Positions 3 to 19,578 of a stretch of DNA of 19,578 nt are shown here, one piece after another; positions within the stretch are counted from its first letter, which is position 1; every line of letters begins with the position of its first letter. Both the position numbers and the translations under genes were made by a program. Where the stretch lies: IMG/VR virus record IMGVR_UViG_3300047620_000017; one strand, 5' to 3'. Origin of the DNA: a virus. The notes under the pieces are model-generated. The model saw only the letters and a list, made by a program, of their open reading frames with translations. It was not told the origin of the DNA and did not search any database.

Positions 3-185
3 ACGCTGATCGCGTGGGCGTGCGGGGTTGACGCTCATTGGCTGAGGACGGGAAAGGCCCCGTCACCAGATGATGACGGGGCCGGTGGGCTCCCGCGGCT
101 GGACTTGAACCAGCAACCGTTCGATTATGCGGATGCCCAGGTCACAGCCAGATCGAGGCTATCACTCGCACGCACGGCGGCATAA
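3..185 (+). CDS. 3' portion of the XRE repressor-like gene (continuation of 19271..19578 when the two repeat copies are merged); ends ...SLARTAA*
   Basis: Same frame as 19271..19578 under the 19451 offset. It reads ...TLIAWACGVDAHWLRTGKAPSPDDDGAGGLPRLDLNQQPFD YADAQVTARSRLSLARTAA, with TAA at 183-185, 8 nt before the int ATG. Confidence 0.6.
   Translation, partial: TLIAWACGVDAHWLRTGKAPSPDDDGAGGLPRLDLNQQPFDYADAQVTARSRLSLARTAA
53..83 (-). terminator. Hairpin (10-bp perfect stem GGCCCCGTCA/TGACGGGGCC, 8-nt loop) followed by TTT on the minus strand, just 3' of the tRNA-like segment; second copy at 19504..19534
   Basis: Stem arms 56-65 and 74-83 are exact reverse complements. On the minus strand TTTCC follows the hairpin. 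The U-tract is short, so this is a weak terminator call. Confidence 0.35.
90..127 (-). other. tRNA 3'-half-like segment (candidate att core), copy 1
   Basis: Minus strand reads T-AA / TCGAA / CGGTT / GCTGG-TTCAAGT-CCAGC / CGCGGGA / G. These are the anticodon-loop 3' side, anticodon-stem 3' strand, variable loop, T-arm with a TTCAAGT loop, 7-nt acceptor 3' strand and discriminator. No complementary 5' acceptor strand (TCCCGCG) or anticodon-stem 5' strand occurs in 128-170, so this is a fragment, not a gene. Confidence 0.6.
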
Positions 186-192
186 TTCCTCC

Positions 193-984
193 ATGAGTGC
201 TGATAACTGGACAGTGGCAGAGCGGGCCTATGTAGTGGCCCTGAGGGCAGGCGGACGGTCTGACGGCACGATCCGCCTCCATCGGCATTACCTGGACCAG
301 GCACGGCGGGTCATTGCGGACCCGTACCGCGCGAGCACAGGTGACCTACTGGAGGTCCTCGGGCGGCCAGGATGGGCCGCTGAGACAAGGAAGTCATGCC
401 GGAGCGTGCTCGCGTCGTTCTATCGGTGGGCGCACGGATCGGGACACATGGGCGCCGACCCGGCTGTAGGACTCCCCACGGTGCGCGTCCCGGCGGGACG
501 GCCCCGCCCGACACCCGAGACGGTGTATGCACGCGCGCTCGCGCTCGCGGATACCCGGGGACGGCTCATGCTGAGACTCGCGGCCCTGGTAGGTCTACGG
601 GCGTGCGAGATCGCCACCGTGCACACAGGGAACTTGGTCGAGGACCTGCTACGGGTCACCGGCAAGGGCGGCAAGGTCCGCGTAGTCCCGGTCCTGGACC
701 CTGAACTCACATCTGCGATCCGAAAGGCGGGCGGGTGGCTGTTCCCGGGCCGGATCGACGGTCACCTCTCGGCCGGATACGTCTCCCGACTGCTCGGAGA
801 GATGCTCCCGGACGGGTGGACCGGGCACACACTCCGACACCGGTTCGGGACACGGGCCTATGCGGGCACTCGTGACCTGCTGGCGGTGGGCGAGCTGATG
901 GGGCACACCCGTCCGGAGACCACCCGCCGGTACGTCGAGTTGCCGGGCGATGCCCTGCGCCTCGCGGCCGCTGCGGCCGCCTAA
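193..984 (+). CDS. int: Tyrosine recombinase / phage integrase (short XerC/D-like, 263 aa)
   Basis: Catalytic signature is visible: LVGLRACE (Arg), GKGGKVRVVP (Lys), HTLRHRF (H-x-x-R), GHTRPETTRRY (His...Tyr). Start set at ATG 193 (MSADNW...); the 127-192 extension in the ORF track translates as unconvincing sequence. C-terminus is ...ALRLAAAAAA. Confidence 0.9.
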   Translation: MSADNWTVAERAYVVALRAGGRSDGTIRLHRHYLDQARRVIADPYRASTGDLLEVLGRPGWAAETRKSCRSVLASFYRWAHGSGHMGADPAVGLPTVRVPAGRPRPTPETVYARALALADTRGRLMLRLAALVGLRACEIATVHTGNLVEDLLRVTGKGGKVRVVPVLDPELTSAIRKAGGWLFPGRIDGHLSAGYVSRLLGEMLPDGWTGHTLRHRFGTRAYAGTRDLLAVGELMGHTRPETTRRYVELPGDALRLAAAAAA

Positions 985-13429: not shown

Positions 13430-15577
13430 TCAGAGGACGATCGGGGGTGCGGGGGTCTCGGCGGGGTGCTCGTGGGCGTACAGCGCGACGGCGGCCGCAA
13501 TGAGGGCGGGCACGGGCCGCGGGGAGTCCCGGGAGAACCGCCGGACGCCGTTGCTGCTGCGAACCTCGACGCTCCCCGCCTGCGTGCGGAGTTCATCGGT
13601 TCCGTCGTGGATCAGGGTCTCATCCACGCCCGCGTACGCGAGGACGGCCTCGCACCCCTGCCCGTACTCGCTCATGGTCAGCGTCCGGACCTCGTGTCCG
13701 AGCTCCTCGAGTCGTGCGACGAAGCGGCCCACGGGGCCGGCGGAGTCCGCGACGTAGGTGGGATCGAGTCCGAGCTGAGCGGGCAGCTCCCGCGTGACGT
13801 AGGGGATCAGCCACTCCGTGCCGGGGGCCTGGTGGACGATGCGTATGCAGGGCCGCTCGGTTCCCTCATCGATCCAGGCTGCAACCACGGCGGCAGCGGA
13901 GTTGCCGGGAGCGACCTCGATCGCGTAGGTGACCTCAGACGGGTCCGGTGCGAGGACCTCGATCCCCAGATCGTCCCATAGCGCCAGGTCGAACAGGGTG
14001 CCGTCCGAGGCCACGATCCGATTGCAGTACGCGCGGAGCAGAGTCGCCCAGCGCCCGGGGTCGTCCTTTGCCCGGGCTGCACGCGCGGCAAGGTCCTCGA
14101 CAGCGATTGTGTTCCCCACGGCGGGGTGGAACTTCGTCCAGGTGTCGGGGTCCAGCGGGTCCATGCCGTCTGGCATCGAGTACTCGATGTAGCACAGGTC
14201 CGGATCGGTGTTGGCGCGGCCACGGTCCACGTACTCGTTCATCCAGTCCGAGGAGACGGTGCCCATCGTGGATATGAGCCATGTCTGCGCCCGGGATCCG
14301 AGAGTGATCTGGCCGGGCTCGACGGCACCAAGGAGAGCATCCCCCAACTCCTTCGAGTAGTGCCAAATCTCGTCCATCGTGACGAGGTGCGGATGCTCGC
14401 CGTGGAGCGCGGAGAAGGTAGGCGAGAACCGGGTGATGTGAGTGCCCGACATCTCGGCCACACGGACACCCTCGGCGCCGTTCGAGCGGGTGGACGTGAA
14501 CAGCAACCGCATGAGCGATTCCTCGACCCTCTCAATCAGGTCCATCATCCGCTTCCGTGCATCCTGCCCGGACTGCGCGGTGTACCAGCACGAGGCCGGC
14601 TCCCCTCTGGTGAGTGCTCGATGAACCTGTAGCGGGATCGTCAGGTCAGTTTTCCCGGATTGCCTCGGAACAGTGACCAGCACGGTCGTGTAGTGATAGC
14701 AGCGCCGACCCCAGGCGTCGAGACGATACTCGGTCGCCACGTCGAGCGCCTTCCGCTGCCACGGCATGAGGTGGCGGCCCATCGCCTTCGCCACGGCGGC
14801 AATTTCGTGGCCCTCGGTGAGGTACGACGGGTCCCGCTCCGGGTGGTGAGCGGCCGGCGGGAGCACGGTGAAGATCGATGGCTCCGTGTCCATCGCGGAG
14901 GTCAGGAGCGCGTCGATGTCCCCGGCGTCGGCGTCGGTCTCAGGCCGGGGAAGGCGCTCAATGATGGTCTGCATGACCGAGGCGAGCAGCGCGAACCCCG
15001 ACGGGGCGCCGACGTGCAGCGCACGGTCGAGGTCGCGAGCTGCCATGAGCGCGAGCTCCTCGTGCGCGGCCCACTGCCGGGTGGAGAGCCCGGCCTCGTG
15101 GCGGGCGCGGAGTGTGAGACGCACACCTGCTTCCTGGACCCCGGTGTCATCGGTGGGGGGATCCGCAATGGGCAGCGCGTCCTCGGTCGCTCCATCGTGT
15201 TCCTCGGCCGCGGTGCCGAGGAGCACACCGATGTAGGCGGCGAGCATGCCCCGTCCCTGAGTGCTCGGTGACGGAAGCGCCTCGAGGGCCTCGGACATGG
15301 CCTGCAGGAGCTTCGCGCGGCCAGACGGTCGGCCGTGGGTGACTGTCGCGTCGAGCTTCGCGGCGTCGGCGAGGACGAGAGCGACGAGTGCCGAGTCCAG
15401 GGGGTCGAGCAGTCCCGCATCCCGGCGAGCTTGGACGGTGATCTCAGTCGCCAGCTCCAACTCGTGCGTGCTCCGTGGGCGTGGGTCGAGTCCGGGCAGC
15501 ATCAGCACGGATCCGCCCGGATCCGACGTGATTGGACGGTCGGATCCGGGCGTTTTTTCGGCGCGATTCTCGGTCAT
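13430..15577 (-). CDS. Terminase: large-subunit ATPase/nuclease (about aa 250-715) preceded by a ~250-aa N-terminal extension with two homologous modules
   Basis: Walker A VPRQSGKT and Walker B-like HLVTMDEIW, with a nuclease-type C-terminal half. The frame is open from ATG 15577 (ATGA overlap with HNH). An alternative start is ATG 15505. Confidence 0.88.
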   Translation of the reverse strand: MTENRAEKTPGSDRPITSDPGGSVLMLPGLDPRPRSTHELELATEITVQARRDAGLLDPLDSALVALVLADAAKLDATVTHGRPSGRAKLLQAMSEALEALPSPSTQGRGMLAAYIGVLLGTAAEEHDGATEDALPIADPPTDDTGVQEAGVRLTLRARHEAGLSTRQWAAHEELALMAARDLDRALHVGAPSGFALLASVMQTIIERLPRPETDADAGDIDALLTSAMDTEPSIFTVLPPAAHHPERDPSYLTEGHEIAAVAKAMGRHLMPWQRKALDVATEYRLDAWGRRCYHYTTVLVTVPRQSGKTDLTIPLQVHRALTRGEPASCWYTAQSGQDARKRMMDLIERVEESLMRLLFTSTRSNGAEGVRVAEMSGTHITRFSPTFSALHGEHPHLVTMDEIWHYSKELGDALLGAVEPGQITLGSRAQTWLISTMGTVSSDWMNEYVDRGRANTDPDLCYIEYSMPDGMDPLDPDTWTKFHPAVGNTIAVEDLAARAARAKDDPGRWATLLRAYCNRIVASDGTLFDLALWDDLGIEVLAPDPSEVTYAIEVAPGNSAAAVVAAWIDEGTERPCIRIVHQAPGTEWLIPYVTRELPAQLGLDPTYVADSAGPVGRFVARLEELGHEVRTLTMSEYGQGCEAVLAYAGVDETLIHDGTDELRTQAGSVEVRSSNGVRRFSRDSPRPVPALIAAAVALYAHEHPAETPAPPIVL
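15515..15558 (+). terminator. Intrinsic-terminator-like hairpin on the plus (antisense) strand inside the terminase 5' end
   Basis: GCCCGGATCCGAC (15515-15527) and GTCGGATCCGGGC (15539-15551) are perfect reverse complements (13 bp). The loop is 11 nt and is followed by G + TTTTTT (15553-15558). Confidence 0.5.
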
Positions 15578-15924
15578 CCGCTCTCACTGTTTTTTTCTGA
15601 GCGCCCGGGGGAGGGAAAAACATGGGGCGCGGGGTGTTCTGGCGTTCGCGGCGCGAAAAAACCATCTCCATTCACGAGCGCGACTCGACCGTGACGCTGC
15701 CCGTGGTGACCGAAGTTGCAGTTAGGGTGCGCGAGACCGAGATTGTCGTAACCAGTCACTGATCCTCCTTGCTTTCTTCCTCGCTTGTGCTCGATCGTCG
15801 CAATGCGAATGCTCGCGATCCGTGTTCCGCACACGCAACAGATCAGTCCGTCGCGAGCCAGCAGCACTTGCTTGATTGACTGCCGTTTCTTGTACGGAAT
15901 GCGGTTCCACGAGTTGCGACTCAC
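15574..15924 (-). CDS. HNH endonuclease, 116 aa
   Basis: CCVCG...ATIEHKRGRKQGG...NLGLAHPNCN matches the HNH beta-beta-alpha metal motif. GTGA overlap upstream. Lies immediately before the terminase, as in HNH-dependent cos phages. The last ~35 codons have low GC3. Confidence 0.85.
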   Translation of the reverse strand: MSRNSWNRIPYKKRQSIKQVLLARDGLICCVCGTRIASIRIATIEHKRGRKQGGSVTGYDNLGLAHPNCNFGHHGQRHGRVALVNGDGFFAPRTPEHPAPHVFPSPGRSEKNSESG

Positions 15925-16157
15925 GAGCGCTTCTCCTTCCTGGTGCGCGTGGGTTGCTGCACGTGGGCGTCGATGTACTCGACCACGTCACGGGGCCGGT
16001 ACCGGACGGTGGCACCGAGGCGGACAACCGGGGGGCCTCCACCACGGGACCGGAGCTGGCGGAGGGCATCGGGGGTCATGGCGAGCATGCCGGCCACCTC
16101 GGTATGGGTGAGCAGGCGGGGCAGAGTCGGCCGCGGTGCAGGCTGCTGAGCGGTCAT
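15921..16157 (-). CDS. Excisionase-family (HTH_17/MerR-like) DNA-binding protein, 78 aa
   Basis: LLTHTEVAGMLAMTPDALRQLRSRGGGPPVVRLGATVRYRPRDVVEYIDAH is the classic excisionase-type winged-HTH pattern. ATGA overlap upstream. Confidence 0.8.
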   Translation of the reverse strand: MTAQQPAPRPTLPRLLTHTEVAGMLAMTPDALRQLRSRGGGPPVVRLGATVRYRPRDVVEYIDAHVQQPTRTRKEKRS

Positions 16158-16270
16158 CGGAGTACCGTCCGGCAGCGCTCGCATCGGATCGGTCCGGGAT
16201 ACATGATGCTGGAGTGACGACGGTAGTTAGAGCGATGGAGTCCGATACGGCAGAGCAGGCGCCCGATCAT
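16154..16270 (-). CDS. Small Cys/His protein, 38 aa
   Basis: Below the ORF-track cutoff. MIGRLLCRIGLHRSNYRRHSSIMYPGPIRCERCRTVLR. ATGA overlaps at both ends link it to neighbouring genes. Confidence 0.45.
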   Translation of the reverse strand: MIGRLLCRIGLHRSNYRRHSSIMYPGPIRCERCRTVLR

Positions 16271-16515
16271 CGGGTCCCCTCCTTGTCGGGGTCGATCAGG
16301 TTGGAGGCCAGGATCAGCAGGTCTCCGGCCTCCTGGACCATGCGTACGGCGTCGGCGGGGATCGGCAGGCCGGTGCTCTCGGCATCGTCGCGGAGGTCGC
16401 CCCGTGCCACGTCCACGGTTCGGGCCAGGTCGCGGAGTTCGTCGCGGTGGCCGATGAGGTGCAGGCGGGTTGCGACCGTGATTGGCACGGTTGTTTCGGA
16501 GCGTTGGGTCACCAC
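16267..16515 (-). CDS. Hypothetical protein, ~82 aa
   Basis: GTG start at 16515 or 16512, overlapping the upstream stop. Protein-like sequence (TQRSETTVPITVATRLHLIGHRDELRDLARTVDV...). Confidence 0.6.
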   Translation of the reverse strand: MVTQRSETTVPITVATRLHLIGHRDELRDLARTVDVARGDLRDDAESTGLPIPADAVRMVQEAGDLLILASNLIDPDKEGTR

Positions 16516-16649
16516 AGTCCCCCGTCGCTGCTCGTGCACGCGTGGTGCACCAGTTCGTCCTCGTCGTAGACCACTTCGTCGCCGGGTTCGATCGGCTCGG
16601 AGCAGTACGCGCACTTCCCGGGGTAGCGGGCAGCGAACGGGCGCGTCAC
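16509..16649 (-). CDS. Small zinc-ribbon-like protein, 46 aa
   Basis: GTGA overlap with the upstream stop. VTRPFAARYPGKCAYCSEPIEPGDEVVYDEDELVHHAC, i.e. C-x2-C ... H-H-x-C. Confidence 0.6.
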   Translation of the reverse strand: MTRPFAARYPGKCAYCSEPIEPGDEVVYDEDELVHHACTSSDGGLW

Positions 16650-16993
16650 GAGTCGCTCCCGATTGCGCCTCGTCCGCACTTGCGACAGGTCCAACCGTTG
16701 TCCATTTCAGTCACGTACTCGGGCGGACAGAGGCACACGCCCCCGTCGCCCTCGTCCGCGAGGTCTTCGAGGTACTCGGTGGCGAGGGCGACGGGGTCCG
16801 GGGTGAGCGGTGGCCGTGTGCTCTCGGCCTGCTCGATCCACTCGACCATGGTGCGGTGCGTCGCGGACGTGTCCACGGAGCTGAGCAGTTCACGGCGGTA
16901 GGGGTAGAGCGGGGCTACGGCCTCGAGCAGGTACAGGCGTGCGTGCTGCGCGGGCGTAACAGCGGAGAGCGGTTCAGTCTCGGATGTGGTCAT
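16646..16993 (-). CDS. Hypothetical protein with C-terminal zinc-ribbon-like motif, 115 aa
   Basis: Internal ATG 16993 with GGAAGGA SD. The C-terminus VCLCPPEYVTEMDNGWTCRKCG carries two Cys pairs. Confidence 0.65.
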   Translation of the reverse strand: MTTSETEPLSAVTPAQHARLYLLEAVAPLYPYRRELLSSVDTSATHRTMVEWIEQAESTRPPLTPDPVALATEYLEDLADEGDGGVCLCPPEYVTEMDNGWTCRKCGRGAIGSDS

Positions 16994-17159
16994 GGCGGGT
17001 GTGTTCCTTCCTGCGGTTGCGGATCTGGTCGATGAGGTCTCGGGCCTCGGGGCTGCCGGGTACCCACTCGGGGCACTGGGGCCGGCGGCACGTCCCATCG
17101 GCTCGGAGCACGCGGTGGCAGACCGGGCATTGGGGTGCCGAGTCATATAGGCCTGTCAT
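16974..17159 (-). CDS. Small zinc-ribbon protein, 61 aa
   Basis: GAAGGGA SD upstream of ATG 17159. QCPVCHRVLRADGTCRRPQCPEW, i.e. C-x2-C ... C-x4-C. Confidence 0.65.
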   Translation of the reverse strand: MTGLYDSAPQCPVCHRVLRADGTCRRPQCPEWVPGSPEARDLIDQIRNRRKEHTRHDHIRD

Positions 17160-17365
17160 CGCGTTTCCCTTCTTGTCATCGGTGAGGCTGTGGATTCATC
17201 GGATGGTTGAGTGCTGCCCTCCCGCACCACGCGGCCTGCTGCTGCGGGTCGGCCGGTCCGGACTGCGTGGGAGCGTCTGGTAGGTGTGAGAGGGGATCCT
17301 GCTGTTCAGTTGTGGGGGACGTTCCAGGGCTGCCCCTGCGGGGCTGTCGGACCCGCTACGCGGGA

Positions 17366-17389
17366 CCCCTCCCGGAGCGTCCCCTCCCC
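17366..17389 (-). other. Canonical G-quadruplex motif on the minus strand (GGGG-A-GGGG-ACGCTCC-GGG-A-GGGG)
   Basis: The plus strand shows CCCC-T-CCC-GGAGCGT-CCCC-T-CCCC, inside the 440-bp non-coding gap. Confidence 0.5.
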
Positions 17390-17599
17390 AGGTTTGCCCT
17401 CGGACCAGAACCCCCATATACCGAGTCAGGGTGCGCGTGTAGCCTCGGCACTGAAACAGTGCGAGGCTCTGCGCAACCCGTCGGGTGACTGATCAGGTAC
17501 AGCCGAGCGGGGGCCGCCCACGGCAGGCGATTGCTTCTATATGAATCCGTGCGGTCATCGGTTACCGGCTGAGACCGTGAGGGAGAGCGCCGGGGTGGG

Positions 17600-17914
17600 T
17601 CAACGGGTCAGATACCTACCCCCCCCCCCGCCGTAGTAGGTGTCGTCCGTCCATGCGGCCTCGAACTGGGCCACGGTCACGCGCGGGTGGGTCTCCCACC
17701 ACGTGCGGAGTTCCTCGGAGGCGTAGCGGAGTGCTCGGGCCTCGGGGCCGATGAACAGGCTGTAGGCCTCCACGCCGGCGCTGGCAGCGTCCTTGGTGAG
17801 CAGCACGCCCTTGCACGCGACGTGAGCCTGCTGGTACGCGGATTCCCGGTACAGCTCGAATTCATCTCGCATGGAGCGCCAGCGGTGCAGGGCCTCGGTC
17901 ATGATCACGCTCAC
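17600..17914 (-). CDS. Hypothetical early protein, 104 aa (or 100 aa from ATG 17902)
   Basis: GTGA overlap upstream. Well-formed protein sequence (TEALHRWRSMRDEFELYRESAYQQAHVACKGVLL...RTWWETHPRVTVAQFEAAW). Contains a G11 run near its 3' end. Confidence 0.75.
   Translation of the reverse strand: MSVIMTEALHRWRSMRDEFELYRESAYQQAHVACKGVLLTKDAASAGVEAYSLFIGPEARALRYASEELRTWWETHPRVTVAQFEAAWTDDTYYGGGGGRYLTR
17619..17629. repeat. Homopolymer C11 (G11 on the coding strand)
   Basis: 11 consecutive C at 17619-17629. On the minus strand they encode part of GGGGG, 6 codons before the stop of the 104-aa gene. Confidence 0.95.
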
Positions 17915-18081
17915 CGGGCCTCACCTGCCACGGGCTCGACGGGACGGCCGGCGGTGGTCTCAAGTGACCGGAGAGCTGCGGCATGCGACGGGTCATCACA
18001 TGCCGCGAGGGGGCCGACGAACTGGACTTGCAGCGCCGTGGTCGCGGGCTCGTCACACCACGTGCATTCGCGCCTGGGCAT
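17911..18081 (-). CDS. Small Cys-containing protein, 56 aa
   Basis: Below the ORF-track cutoff. MPRRECTWCDEPATTALQVQFVGPLAACDDPSHAAALRSLETTAGRPVEPVAGEAR. TGATG overlap upstream and GTGA overlap downstream. Confidence 0.55.
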   Translation of the reverse strand: MPRRECTWCDEPATTALQVQFVGPLAACDDPSHAAALRSLETTAGRPVEPVAGEAR

Positions 18082-18620
18082 CACCGATCACCTGCCAGAC
18101 TGTGCGCATGGTGAGTTTTGGGGTTCTCGATCAGGCGGTGTCGTGGTTGAACCGGACGCTTGGGCCGCGTCCACAGGGGCACGAGCAGCTCGGCCGTGCG
18201 GTGCAAGGTGTCCAGCAGCTCCCGGCCGGTGTCGGCCAGCAGGCGTCCCACGGCAGCGGTGCCGTGCGCGAGCTGGCGGACGAGGTGATCCGTGAACCCG
18301 TGGACCTCGGAGACCGGGTGGACCTCGAGCACCTCGTGCGCCAGGTGCCCGTCTCGGGGGTGCGCCATCTCTGGGCGGTCCGCAAGGGCCGGAGCGTGCA
18401 CCCACTGGTGAAACTCGGCCGGGACGGTACGCCGGAACCGGGTCCCCGGCTCGGCAGCATCGATCCCGACGACGAGGACATGCGCGAGCTTGGCGGGGTG
18501 AACGTGTGCGTGCTGCGGGTCGCTGTTGACGGCAGGGGCAAGCGTCGAACGGTCGGAGTCGAGGCGATCTTTGGTCGCGAGTACCGGTACCGGCCGCGTG
18601 CCCTGTGGGATTAAGGTCAT
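18081..18620 (-). CDS. Hypothetical His-rich early protein, 179 aa
   Basis: Internal ATG 18620 overlaps the upstream stop (ATGA), and its own stop overlaps the next ATG (TGATG). It therefore fits the unbroken minus-strand chain. A mirror ORF on the plus strand has similar codon-position statistics, so confidence is moderate. Confidence 0.6.
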   Translation of the reverse strand: MTLIPQGTRPVPVLATKDRLDSDRSTLAPAVNSDPQHAHVHPAKLAHVLVVGIDAAEPGTRFRRTVPAEFHQWVHAPALADRPEMAHPRDGHLAHEVLEVHPVSEVHGFTDHLVRQLAHGTAAVGRLLADTGRELLDTLHRTAELLVPLWTRPKRPVQPRHRLIENPKTHHAHSLAGDR

Positions 18621-18862
18621 CGCCAGACCTCGAGTGCCTCGGGACCCCAGTAGACGTGTGCACCGTCGTGCCCTGCGTCCCGCATGCACGAGTAGGTCGT
18701 GCCCTCGTGGCACAAGGTGGAGCGTCGCCAGGCTCGCCGGCGGGGCCGGGACGGATGCGTGATGGTGCGACCTCGAGCGGCGCGGATCAGGACCGCGTGG
18801 TGGTAGTGGCACACGCCGCGCGTCCATGCGGGATCTGTGCATCCGACGTGGCGGCACTTCAT
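18617..18862 (-). CDS. Cys/His-rich (zinc-binding-like) protein, 81 aa
   Basis: Internal ATG 18862 with GGGGAGAA SD. MKCRHVGCTDPAWTRGVCHYHH... resembles the C-x4-C...G-x-C-x2-H motif common in actinophage HNH-type or DNA-binding proteins. Confidence 0.65.
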   Translation of the reverse strand: MKCRHVGCTDPAWTRGVCHYHHAVLIRAARGRTITHPSRPRRRAWRRSTLCHEGTTYSCMRDAGHDGAHVYWGPEALEVWR

Positions 18863-18966
18863 CGGTTCTCCCCTCGGAGGATCGCGGCGACGCCGAGCAC
18901 GGCAGCAGACGCGCACACCATGAGGGCGACCCAGCACAGGCCGTAGCCGATCAGCTCTGCAATCAC
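18859..18966 (-). CDS. Putative 35-aa single-TM peptide
   Basis: The GTG start overlaps the upstream stop (GTGA) and its stop overlaps the next ATG (ATGA). (M)IAELIGYGLCWVALMVCASAAVLGVAAILRGENR is a hydrophobic helix. Confidence 0.4.
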   Translation of the reverse strand: MIAELIGYGLCWVALMVCASAAVLGVAAILRGENR

Positions 18967-19169
18967 TCCCCGGCCTCCTCGCCGTTGGGGGTGGTGTCGG
19001 ACACCAGGGCCTCAATCTGTTCAGCATCGAACCAGAGCGGGCCACGGACGCCTACGCCTCGCACCGCTGGGGCCAGTTCCCCGGCGCGGACGCGACGTGC
19101 GACAGTCTGTGGAGTCACCCCCAGCTTGCGCGCGACCTCGCGCGTAGAGATCAGGTCAAGGTTGATCAT
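18963..19169 (-). CDS. Cro/excisionase-like HTH protein (MerR/HTH_17-type), 68 aa, divergent from the repressor-like gene
   Basis: LISTREVARKLGVTPQTVARRVRAGELAP...LWFDAEQIEAL. It is the first gene of the minus-strand array. Confidence 0.8.
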   Translation of the reverse strand: MINLDLISTREVARKLGVTPQTVARRVRAGELAPAVRGVGVRGPLWFDAEQIEALVSDTTPNGEEAGE

Positions 19170-19270: not shown

Positions 19271-19578
19271 ATGACACAGCAACCGCACAGTGTGGGCGTC
19301 GTCCCTGACATCAACACCTTGCCGATCCGCCTACGTGCCGCGCGCGAGCACGCGGGCCTGGATCAGGGCGAGCTTGCCGAGAGGGCCGGGGTCGCACGTG
19401 GCACTCTGGGCGCGGCAGAGCGAGGCCAGCGGACGCCGAACAACGCGACCTTGACGCTGATCGCGTGGGCGTGCGGGGTTGACGCTCATTGGCTGAGGAC
19501 GGGAAAGGCCCCGTCACCAGATGATGACGGGGCCGGTGGGCTCCCGCGGCTGGACTTGAACCAGCAACCGTTCGATTA
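19271..19578 (+). CDS. XRE/cI-type HTH repressor-like protein, open at the window end (121 aa if continued through the repeat into 128..185)
   Basis: LRAAREHAGLDQGELAERAGVARGTLGAAERGQRTPNNATLTLIAWACGVDAHWLRTG is a typical HTH_3/XRE domain. ATG 19271 is the first start after the in-frame TAG at 19259. There is no stop before 19578. Confidence 0.8.
   Translation, partial: MTQQPHSVGVVPDINTLPIRLRAAREHAGLDQGELAERAGVARGTLGAAERGQRTPNNATLTLIAWACGVDAHWLRTGKAPSPDDDGAGGLPRLDLNQQPFD
19452..19578. repeat. Terminal direct repeat, copy 2 (attR candidate or circular-assembly overlap); contains tRNA-like segment 19541..19578 and hairpin 19507..19534
   Basis: Identical to 1-127. Lies entirely inside the repressor-like ORF, codons about 61-103. 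Confidence 0.97.

Follow-up and report, generated by a model that had tools for sequence, protein, structure and literature searches.

The early region described here, part of a 19,578-nt window of viral DNA, probably belongs to a complete and active temperate siphovirus (19,451 bp; Brachybacterium-like actinobacterial host), whose regulatory arm it forms; the same degree of confidence applies to our explanation as a whole. We propose a layout of two co-directional, tightly packed minus-strand operons (Table 1). Operon 1 would run from a divergent switch, with genes for an HTH protein of MerR/Xis type, a membrane mini-protein, two ORFans rich in Cys, and the 104-aa protein. A conserved plus-strand gene interrupts it, and a non-coding, probably structured island of 440 nt follows. 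Operon 2 would open with a conserved Cys4 zinc-ribbon protein; further mini-proteins and another HTH_17 protein come next, and the operon then continues unbroken into the HNH, terminase, and virion genes. Like the rest of its lineage, the phage appears to encode no replication enzyme, so that its DNA would have to be copied by the host replisome. The early region is mostly ordinary for its lineage.

A direct repeat (positions 1–127 and 19452–19578) closes the genome at 19,451 bp. The phage exists in both integrated and circular forms: an integrated copy adjoins a tRNA whose anticodon loop was read as Asn, with identity stopping exactly at the 127-bp repeat, and 19,481-nt circular contigs of the same phage occur in several DNA and RNA libraries from ant metagenomes. 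The RNA libraries contain the whole genome as one contig and are therefore uninformative on transcription or strand. Family searches of the remaining genome identified integrase, repressor, and virion/tail genes, the integrase (127–984) being the only recombinase, and lysis genes are present among the public pipeline's gene calls on an identical contig. None of 50,697 phage records gave a nucleotide match. Of 551 related stretches in the viral collection, the best 80 loci (13–21-kb contigs) were retained.

Table 1. Features of the early region, in order of decreasing coordinate
Feature	Coordinates	Strand	Basis
68-aa MerR/excisionase-type HTH, Cro- or Xis-like, opening early operon 1	18963–19169	-	Pfam, PHROGs, synteny
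35-aa hydrophobic mini-protein, likely single membrane helix	18859–18966	-	codon usage, public gene call
81-aa Cys/His-rich ORFan, C-x4-C-x9-C-x2-H near N-terminus; reality uncertain	18617–18862	-	motif
168-aa conserved gene	18108–18614	+	substitution pattern, conserved C-terminus, pairwise frame scores
56/57-aa ORFan, CxxC...C..PSH; reality uncertain	17911–18084	-	motif
104-aa protein, last gene of operon 1	17600–17914	-	phrog_12049, homologues
440-nt non-coding island between operons 1 and 2	17160–17599	-	no coding signal, conservation, common fold
61-aa Cys4 zinc-ribbon candidate, opening operon 2	16974–17159	-	invariant residues
115-aa ORFan, C-terminal CxC...CxxC	16646–16993	-	codon usage
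46-aa zinc-ribbon candidate, widespread actinophage family	16509–16649	-	phrog_1581
81-aa conserved protein, cluster c13	16267–16512	-	start corrected from 115-aa ORF (16267–16614)
38-aa C..H...CxxC mini-protein	16154–16270	-	L085 homologue
HTH_17 protein, 87 aa (78 aa from Met10), immediately preceding HNH and terminase	15921–16184	-	Pfam, PHROGs

Organization of the early region

The initial annotation described a continuous, translationally coupled chain of twelve minus-strand ORFs. The ORFs do lie where they had been placed and 4-nt overlaps are present, but the chain is broken twice, because the plus-strand gene and the 440-nt gap intervene. Judged by coordinates, GTGA overlaps join the 68- and 35-aa ORFs, the 57- and 104-aa ORFs, the 115-aa ORFan and the 46-aa ORF, the 46-aa ORF and c13 (at 16512), and the 87-aa ORF and HNH; ATGA overlaps join the 35-aa ORF and the 81-aa ORFan, c13 and the 38-aa ORF, and HNH and TerL. 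The 38/87-aa junction is also ATGA, provided that the 87-aa ORF begins at its Met10, and the 61-aa ORF and 115-aa ORFan overlap by 20 nt rather than 4. The only sigma-70-like promoter match (19206–19177) lies just upstream of the 68-aa gene.

A conserved gene on the opposite strand

One of the two larger proteins singled out by the initial annotation, a "179-aa His-rich protein" (18081–18620, minus strand), turned out to be the antisense shadow of the 168-aa plus-strand gene. Substitutions between close relatives fall on codon position 1 of the 179-aa frame, which was rejected as coding: synonymous-to-non-synonymous counts are 4:21, 1:15, and 3:20 in this frame, as against 16:9, 9:7, and 17:6 in the phase-matched reverse frame. 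The reverse-strand protein also outscores the 179-aa frame in all ten pairwise comparisons and reaches two more lineages; in the positive control of the strand test, the operon strand scores better for each of four genes. The 168-aa gene is called by the public pipeline on 99.95–99.97% identical contigs and conserved in five phage lineages, and the C-terminus G-R-x-Y-x-Y-R-P-x-A-x-W-D, followed directly by the stop codon, is common to the window and the related loci L003, L011, L017, L004, and L085. Its start may lie further downstream, and a 137-aa form also occurs in the collection. AlphaFold2 modeled the 168-aa protein with a beta-rich core at a pLDDT of 51 and the 179-aa frame at a pLDDT of 38; a fold search with the former model found no match, and family searches were negative for both (Pfam, PHROG, and PADLOC for the 168-aa protein; Pfam, PHROGs, and further family libraries for the 179-aa frame).

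The view that twelve proteins form an unbroken coupled chain, in which a new replication or takeover function would be sought mainly in the His-rich and 104-aa proteins, is thus largely refuted and keeps hardly any probability. The 179-aa ORF is indeed open, its start overlaps the preceding stop by ATGA, and a syntenic "homologue" shares 32% identity with it; however, the substitution pattern and the ten pairwise comparisons reject the frame, its model is poor and without a family match, and openness of a phase-matched antisense frame is the default in high-GC DNA. Because early transcription runs head-on into the reverse-strand gene, we tentatively suggest that this gene is expressed from the prophage.

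Proteins of the two operons

The 68-aa protein that opens operon 1 matches Pfam HTH_17 (28.5 bits; cutoff 27) and phrog_66, "excisionase and transcriptional regulator" (E = 9e-7), and has syntenic homologues in 10–15 related loci. The 35-aa ORF has the highest codon-usage score of the region (0.263) and is called by the public pipeline on 99.95–99.97% identical contigs; a hydrophobic 36-aa look-alike in L085 was recognized by eye, with no BLAST match at E ≤ 1. The 81-aa ORFan is likewise called by the pipeline, but all frames here lack a positive codon score, and neither a family nor a homologue was found in family libraries, related loci, or the phage collection. The 56/57-aa ORF, also called, scores weakly positive (0.083) and has no homologue in Pfam, PHROGs, or related loci.

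The 104-aa protein, the second of the proposed larger replication candidates, aligns with positions 650–722 of the 745 in phrog_12049 (E = 2.4e-13), a domain that also occurs at the C-terminal end of MuF-like head proteins and carries no hint of replication. The domain occurs in 47 phage records, standing alone in Microbacterium phages and fused to MuF or a protease in Streptomyces phages. Eight homologues were found, one of them in a Brachybacterium paraconglomeratum prophage, and the sense frame wins all pairs. The ORF ends in a G11 run (17619–17629), which is G10 in the 99.95–99.97% identical contigs.

In operon 2, the 61-aa gene is preceded by a Shine-Dalgarno-like GAAGGGAA, and its sense frame wins; across six phages, C11, C14, C24, C29, R19, G22, and R25 are invariant and the gene always directly follows the non-coding island. 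The 115-aa ORFan has a good codon score (0.234) and no homologue in the phage collection, related loci, or family libraries. The 46-aa protein belongs to phrog_1581 (E = 1.5e-11), with tblastn matches, all annotated as hypothetical, in 142 records of Mycobacterium, Gordonia, Arthrobacter, and Microbacterium phages. For c13, with homologues in 7–8 loci, the original 115-aa start was rejected since homologues align only from residue 35; the best start is the GTG at 16512, the codon score is 0.255 for the short form versus 0.094 for the long one, and the sense frame wins 10 of 10 pairs. The sense frame also wins for the 38-aa gene, whose syntenic 47-aa homologue in L085 (40% identity, E = 3.6e-4) keeps the C/H ligands. 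The 87-aa protein, kept at its position in 25–26 loci, matches HTH_17 (30.5 bits; cutoff 27) and phrog_66 (E = 2e-8), with a weak match to the small terminase phrog_57, and is a candidate late/packaging DNA-binding factor or excisionase.

All six Cys/His motifs reported earlier are found in the sequence, and Cys is enriched approximately tenfold in early over late proteins (29 Cys and six CxxC in 889 residues versus 12 Cys and no CxxC in 3549). Several of the mini-proteins (61, 46, and 38 aa) are genuine, conserved zinc-ribbon candidates of the Cys4 type. The 81-, 56/57-, and 115-aa ORFans have no relative anywhere searched. Relatives were found for seven ORFs, and an eighth (35 aa) has only the unscored look-alike. 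The conserved zinc-ribbon and HTH mini-proteins would seem likelier to bind DNA or proteins and so regulate packaging and the switch from early to late genes than to be replication enzymes.

Replication and the non-coding island

As the initial annotation had observed, no replication enzyme is recognizable in the region, and this extends to the rest of the closed genome and to the approximately 80 related 13–21-kb phage contigs. Searches of the region with Pfam, PHROGs, and NCBIfam found no polymerase, primase, helicase, Rep, or SSB, PADLOC added nothing, and the ten largest ORFs of the remaining genome matched no replication family. Once redundancy is removed, the relatives have 146 ORFs of 110 aa or more upstream of TerL, and these match only integrases, lysins, HTH, AAA_33/18, and HNH. 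The absence of replication genes is thus the rule in the lineage and not a peculiarity of this phage. Dependence on small factors that bind DNA or proteins is a possible consequence but not a necessary one; an origin or RNA that acts in cis from the non-coding island, with host enzymes doing the work, is no less plausible.

Many relatives carry an HTH_36/DnaD_N-like winged-helix protein in their early arm that is absent from this phage. The DnaD_N similarity is weak (E about 3e-3, below the Pfam cutoff), a profile of these HTH_36 proteins finds no solved initiator, and their function as initiators can only be inferred. One of the 81-, 56/57-, and 115-aa ORFans, or the reverse-strand 168-aa protein, may be a new initiator that binds the origin and recruits the helicase loader of the host. 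The mid-size HTH_36/weak DnaD_N proteins of relatives do sit at roughly the same place, shortly after the first HTH gene, and the Cys-rich ORFans could bind DNA; even so, we regard this as quite unlikely, given that none of these proteins resembles a known initiator, that the 81-aa ORFan has no coding signal, and that the orientation of the 168-aa gene is wrong for early expression.

The island contains no ORF with a coding signal by codon usage. An element of ~270 nt is 72% conserved with L085, and a fold common to these two lineages only comprises 60 pairs, none broken and five compensatory, with G-U pairs on the minus strand alone; a G+C-rich hairpin lies at ~17440–17470, and the fold energy is marginally below that of shuffles (z = -1.8). 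Relatives keep a gap at this slot, where eight carry R1, a covariation-supported structured RNA of ~245 nt in which 94% of cells are paired (30–45% with partners slid) and 24 of 57 pairs are compensatory (1–3 with partners slid), values reached by none of 500 shuffles. The island is not a member of R1, and neither matches Rfam. No AT-rich stretch and no DnaA-box-like or iteron pattern was seen in the island. Our best guess is that it is an origin or a cis-regulatory RNA; more specifically, and with some reserve, the origin could lie in or next to the island and be fired by early transcription, host factors, or both.

By analogy with ColE1, the island transcript might fold, persist as a hybrid with its template, and be processed by host RNase H and extended by DNA polymerase I, in which case no phage initiator protein would be needed and the unrelated R1 would do the same job in relatives. 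A structured RNA does occupy the same slot in two sequence-unrelated forms, each closed by a long-range pairing of a G-run with a C-rich segment, in a phage without a replication protein. However, we consider RNA priming very unlikely, as the predicted fold has the G-run paired with RNA and not demonstrably with DNA, and a leader, antiterminator, or sRNA would show the same features. A point in its favor is that the winged-helix candidates are never found in loci with an RNA island, but this weighs little because early modules are exchanged as blocks.

No locus combines an RNA island with the mid-size early proteins c8, c11, or c16; the RNA-bearing loci fall in two TerL clades, with one c8 locus nested among them. 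This exclusion may simply reflect the swapping of whole early modules.

Alternatively, the island could control transcription or translation in cis, as an antiterminator, terminator/leader, or sRNA that times the passage from operon 1 to operon 2 and late read-through, while replication starts elsewhere, for example at a cos nick made by the HNH-terminase and followed by rolling-circle copying by the host replisome. Its location exactly between the early genes and an operon running unbroken into the HNH, terminase, and virion genes would suit such a role, as would the hairpin, the abutting HNH and terminase genes, and the zinc-ribbon gene with its own ribosome-binding site that always follows. 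Yet a scan found no canonical intrinsic terminator, and the island matches no known antiterminator RNA family; to our knowledge, packaging nucleases are not established as rolling-circle initiators in phages of this kind. We judge this reading, in which replication starts outside the island, unlikely.

Comparison with known systems

The closest named relatives are the Arthrobacter cluster AN phages (genus Decurrovirus; TinoCrisci, Maggie; 15.5 kb), which are described as being among the smallest siphoviruses (PMC5513430). Their TerL is 37% identical to that of this phage over the ATPase-nuclease core. Both have a fused protease-capsid gene and lack an annotated replication enzyme; in both, a short arm of small genes begins with a divergent pair, an HTH gene opposite a MerR-like HTH gene, and an HNH gene lies in the terminase packaging neighborhood, adjacent in this phage and across the genome ends in AN phages. 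Unlike this phage, which is temperate and 4 kb larger, AN phages are lytic and have no integrase; they carry the HTH_36 protein gp23, which this phage lacks, and have neither a large non-coding island nor any of the Cys-rich mini-proteins.

Among other actinophages below 20 kb, Gordonia phages GMA5 and GRU3 (17.6–17.7 kb) are likewise described as having very small, high-GC siphovirus genomes with an integrase homologue (PMC4524720). The mycobacteriophages BPs, Brujita, and Charlie, with integration-dependent immunity, are related through the switch and not through the early region studied here; their genomes are ~40–50 kb with more recognizable early genes. The ColE1 RNA II preprimer and the HK022 put RNA are structured cis-acting transcripts that replace a protein, in replication priming and antitermination, respectively, and would offer the island a purely functional analogy, with no sequence or Rfam relation.

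Gene Content of the Early Region

The minus-strand ORFs listed in the initial annotation, their 4-nt overlaps and all six Cys/His motifs are present in the sequence, and the 889 residues of the early ORFs include 29 Cys and six CxxC motifs, compared with 12 Cys and no CxxC in the 3549 residues of six large late proteins. The observation is real in outline, with one prominent detail wrong, and the arrangement is typical of a known lineage. The coupled chain that was proposed holds as far as the 4-nt overlaps go; a gap of 440 nt that shows no coding signal divides it, and the overlap of the 61- and 115-aa ORFs measures 20 nt. A further ORF credited with 115 aa is better read as 81 aa (cluster c13), since its relatives align only from residue 35 and a downstream GTG start gives the better score.

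The 179-aa His-rich protein, previously put forward as one of two larger candidates, is an antisense shadow of a 168-aa gene on the opposite strand. Frame openness was uninformative in this case because both frames are open in all lineages, as expected for high-GC DNA. Exhaustive HMMER searching with the 179-aa frame retrieved a single real relative, in a syntenic position on a phage contig of 17 kb; word-based and Atlas feature searches were both empty, AlphaFold2 returned a pLDDT of 38, and a profile comparison with the gp23-like family (the HTH_36 proteins of Arthrobacter cluster AN phages) was null (probability 0.4%). When three approximately 90% identical copies of the relative were compared pairwise, substitutions piled up on the first codon position of this frame (16, 5 and 6; 9, 4 and 4; 19, 1 and 6 at positions 1, 2 and 3), with synonymous to non-synonymous ratios of 4:21, 1:15 and 3:20; the phase-matched reverse frame gave 16:9, 9:7 and 17:6. 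The reverse frame also outscored the operon-strand frame in 10 of 10 pairs (e.g., 108 vs. 57 bits and 174 vs. 90 bits); in a control on four other genes of the region, the operon strand was better in every pair. Public gene calls on contigs 99.95–99.97% identical to the window include the reverse gene. On the substitution pattern, the pairwise scores and these gene calls, the 179-aa coding frame was rejected.

The product of the 168-aa gene ends in G-R-x-Y-x-Y-R-P-x-A-x-W-D followed by the stop codon in every lineage. It matches no family in Pfam or PHROGs and no defence system in PADLOC, and a word-based search returned the protein itself alone. Its AlphaFold2 model (pLDDT 51) gave no usable fold match (best Foldseek E against the PDB 0.23; TM ≤0.43 in the Atlas shape search). 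The gene converges with an 81-aa ORF, 2 nt separating the two stops; early transcription therefore meets it head-on, an orientation that hints at possible expression from the prophage. The corrected map loses one supposed key protein and gains a conserved reverse-strand gene.

Coordinates of features in the window and in related phage or prophage contigs (L-numbers)
Feature	Location	Strand	Remarks
HTH_3 repressor	19271 through the terminal repeat to 185		
Tyrosine integrase	127-984		
Late genes		-	tail protein with SGNH esterase domain, other tail genes, fused protease-capsid, portal, 715-aa large terminase (TerL), HNH endonuclease
168-aa gene	18108-18614	+	open in five lineages
179-aa frame	18081-18620	-	shadow
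G11 homopolymer	17619-17629		3' end of the 104-aa gene
Non-coding island	17160-17599		440 nt
115-aa ORFan	16646-16993	-	
81-aa c13 gene	16267-16614 as first drawn	-	preferred start GTG 16512
Stretches shared with other ant-run contigs	16169-16187; 18034-18054		19-21 nt
HNH gene	15574-15924	-	
Inverted repeat	15514-15552		perfect 14 bp, 11-nt loop; within the terminase gene, close to its 5' end
TerL N-terminal extension	14831-15577	-	250 aa
R1 RNA	L002:767-1011; L003:1681-1925; L004:2134-2355; L006:1554-1773; L011:1286-1529; L013:1337-1581; L017:1291-1536; L084:10965-11208; L108:6888-7132		
HTH_17 protein with Cys/His-rich tail	L085:2782-3099		
Cys-rich repeat proteins	L006:710-1162; L002:10-366; L084:10563-10910		one or two motif copies

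Genome Form and Host

The first 127 bases of the window are identical to its last 127, leaving 19,451 bp of unique sequence with a G+C content of 68%. In the 99.95–99.97% identical metagenome contigs the phage adjoins a tRNA (anticodon loop read as Asn), and identity ends exactly at the repeat; circular end-joining is seen in another contig and in 19,481-nt contigs from several DNA and RNA libraries of ant metagenomes. The terminal repeat, together with the integrated and circular forms, therefore identifies a complete, active temperate phage, all of whose genes lie inside the window; endolysin and holin genes are present in the gene calls of an identical contig. In the metatranscriptome libraries the whole genome forms a single contig, which informs on neither transcription nor strand, DNA carry-over being possible. 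The host group is indicated by homologues in Brachybacterium paraconglomeratum and in Brachybacterium sp. YJGR34. Megablast matched the window to none of 50,697 phage records. The same ant-metagenome runs contain other phage-sized contigs at deeper coverage (19,479 nt from the DNA run and 16,141 nt from one of the RNA runs), which share only two short stretches with the window and are probably related small phages of the same samples.

Small Early Proteins

Several of the small proteins are conserved. The 68- and 87-aa proteins are conserved HTH_17 members, of the MerR/excisionase type (28.5 and 30.5 bits in Pfam, cutoff 27), and the 81-aa c13 protein is likewise kept in relatives. The 61-aa Cys4 protein, whose four Cys are invariant in six phages, is always the first gene after the gap; the 46-aa protein belongs to phrog_1581, the match spanning the Cys-bearing part, and occurs in 142 phage records; and the conserved 38-aa protein keeps its metal ligands in L085, a related locus. 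These three are accordingly regarded as conserved candidate zinc-ribbon (Cys4 or Cys3His) mini-proteins; none of the region's proteins reaches the cutoff of a Pfam zinc-ribbon model.

The 104-aa protein is conserved among relatives and matches the MuF-like head protein phrog_12049 only at positions 650–722 of 745. Unlike that protein it lacks the N-terminal MuF domain, and so corresponds to a stand-alone C-terminal domain, the same form as is found in Microbacterium phages; its profile matched no solved structure, and an Atlas search was empty. The homopolymer at the 3' end of its gene reads G10 in three of the 99.95–99.97% identical contigs, altering the last few residues; either the site is prone to slippage or the assembly is wrong there.

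For the remaining ORFs, a 35-aa membrane peptide has an unscored look-alike in L085 only, and no relative was found for the 81-aa Cys/His, 56/57-aa and 115-aa ORFs, the first of which also lacks codon-usage support; tblastn of the 81- and 115-aa ORFans against the phage collection gave no match. The HTH_17 protein that comes first in the early arm of L085 has a Cys/His-rich C-terminal tail, and the window has a separate Cys/His-rich 81-aa ORF after its HTH gene, with no sequence similarity between the two. Some relatives have early proteins in which the motif H-G-T-x3-Y-x2-G-C-R-C-x2-C-R occurs once or twice ahead of a helical tail; these proteins belong to no Pfam family and are absent from the window.

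Replication Genes across the Lineage

The reported lack of a recognisable replication gene was borne out: Pfam, PHROGs and NCBIfam reveal no polymerase, primase, helicase, Rep/RepA, DnaD/HTH_36-type organiser, SSB or recombination protein (RecT/Erf) among the region's ORFs, and PADLOC adds nothing. The 168-aa protein and the ten largest ORFs of the remaining genome match no replication family either. A rival, less probable reading is that one of the ORFans is a new initiator.

The absence is not special to this phage but the rule across its lineage. TerL is 37% identical to that of Arthrobacter cluster AN, with which the window shares homologous TerL, portal and fused protease-capsid genes and an HNH gene adjoining the packaging genes, and the cluster AN annotation also lists no replication enzyme. 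The viral collection yielded 551 related stretches, of which the 80 best loci (13–21-kb contigs) were retained; in their early arms, 146 non-redundant ORFs with a length of 110 aa or more matched only integrases, lysins, HTH, AAA_33/18 and HNH families. A TerL-based scan of genome contigs found no relative, and replication is not addressed in the accessible papers about small actinophages. As it stands, the early region is ordinary for a small actinophage.

Many relatives encode a mid-size protein early in the arm; where a first HTH gene is present, the protein comes soon after it. Twelve loci have an HTH_36 protein with weak DnaD_N similarity in this role, and another 26 have a member of one of two families, unrelated to each other, whose matches are either weak HTH or to no clear family. 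Such proteins are plausible candidates for origin binding. In cluster AN a gp23-like HTH_36 protein follows a MerR-like gene, whereas the window has no HTH_36 match; these mid-size proteins are missing both from the window and from its nearest relatives. Against the PDB, the gp23-like profile gave chance zinc-finger rows only, with no solved relative.

Among the packaging genes, the N-terminal extension of TerL is kept in the relative L002, whose full-length protein is 78% identical, and the L085 TerL matches that of the window in size (711 aa). Distant relatives have a TerL of approximately 490–540 aa preceded by a separate gene of approximately 115 aa (cluster c0), which fits a fused small-subunit function for the extension. 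The HNH gene is matched by the Pfam HNH model and has counterparts in 46 related loci, with a codon-usage score near zero; the public pipeline left it uncalled in the 99.95–99.97% identical contigs and listed a 46-aa reverse ORF instead.

The Non-coding Island and the R1 RNA of Relatives

The gap is kept at the same place in relatives, eight of which hold R1, a structured RNA that small Brachybacterium-type phages and prophages carry in this gap of the early arm. Its core of approximately 245 nt lies inside an element that aligns over approximately 330–360 nt, with (CGAC/CGAT)n repeats beyond the core and then a C-rich tract pairing back to a G6 run. Covariation in R1 is strong: pairing is found in 94% of cells (30–45% for slid partners) and compensatory pairs at 24 of 57 (1–3 for slid partners), values reached in none of 500 shuffles; one 8-bp helix has seven covarying pairs, and G-U pairs assign the element to the operon strand. 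Rfam, searched at E up to 1 with R1 and the window, returned chance microRNA-type rows only. The R1 of relatives is a well-supported, undescribed structured RNA and, with the unexplained island of the window, the most interesting by-product of the analysis.

A covariance model built from seven relatives scored 177–268 bits in eight relatives, but found no match in the window with default filters and at best 4 bits with filters off. The window and L085 share a different 270-nt element (72% identity; 60 predicted pairs, none broken), seen in these two lineages only; an exact-pattern scan of viral contigs for it found nothing. Genome contigs contained 89 stretches with an R1 sub-pattern, one of them a true match (Brachybacterium sp. 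YJGR34). In a quick, unfinished TerL tree, midpoint-rooted for drawing only, RNA-bearing loci fall in two clades, with the window sister to an R1 phage and L085 sister to another, and one locus that encodes a mid-size protein branches from within the R1 loci. These placements imply that early modules have been exchanged. RNA island and mid-size protein never occur together in any locus, an exclusion compatible with both functional replacement and plain block exchange.

Proposed Mode of Replication and Comparison with Known Systems

The established features comprise a switch, a pair of compact operons for small proteins of DNA-binding type, a single reverse gene and a non-coding island that is probably structured; replication enzymes are absent. 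We propose that replication would be host-driven, from an origin placed with modest confidence at the island; the mini-proteins would regulate timing and packaging. A repeat search of the region found no iteron-like family. An antiterminator or leader at the island, combined with nick-primed replication, is a rival reading; a scan of the region found no terminator. In a further rival reading, which we consider improbable, the island, like the sequence-unrelated R1 at the same slot, would be an RNA-based origin or preprimer for which no phage-encoded initiator is needed.

Tailed phages with genomes under 20 kb illustrate how small a set of functions can sustain a dsDNA virus, and here a whole widespread lineage, represented in the viral collection by several hundred related stretches at least, has no recognisable replication protein. 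An island acting as an origin or as a protein-free control element would be of wider interest. Were the RNA-based origin correct, it would form a cassette exchangeable with the winged-helix-protein early modules of the lineage's other branches, and a tailed-phage counterpart of ColE1-type replication.
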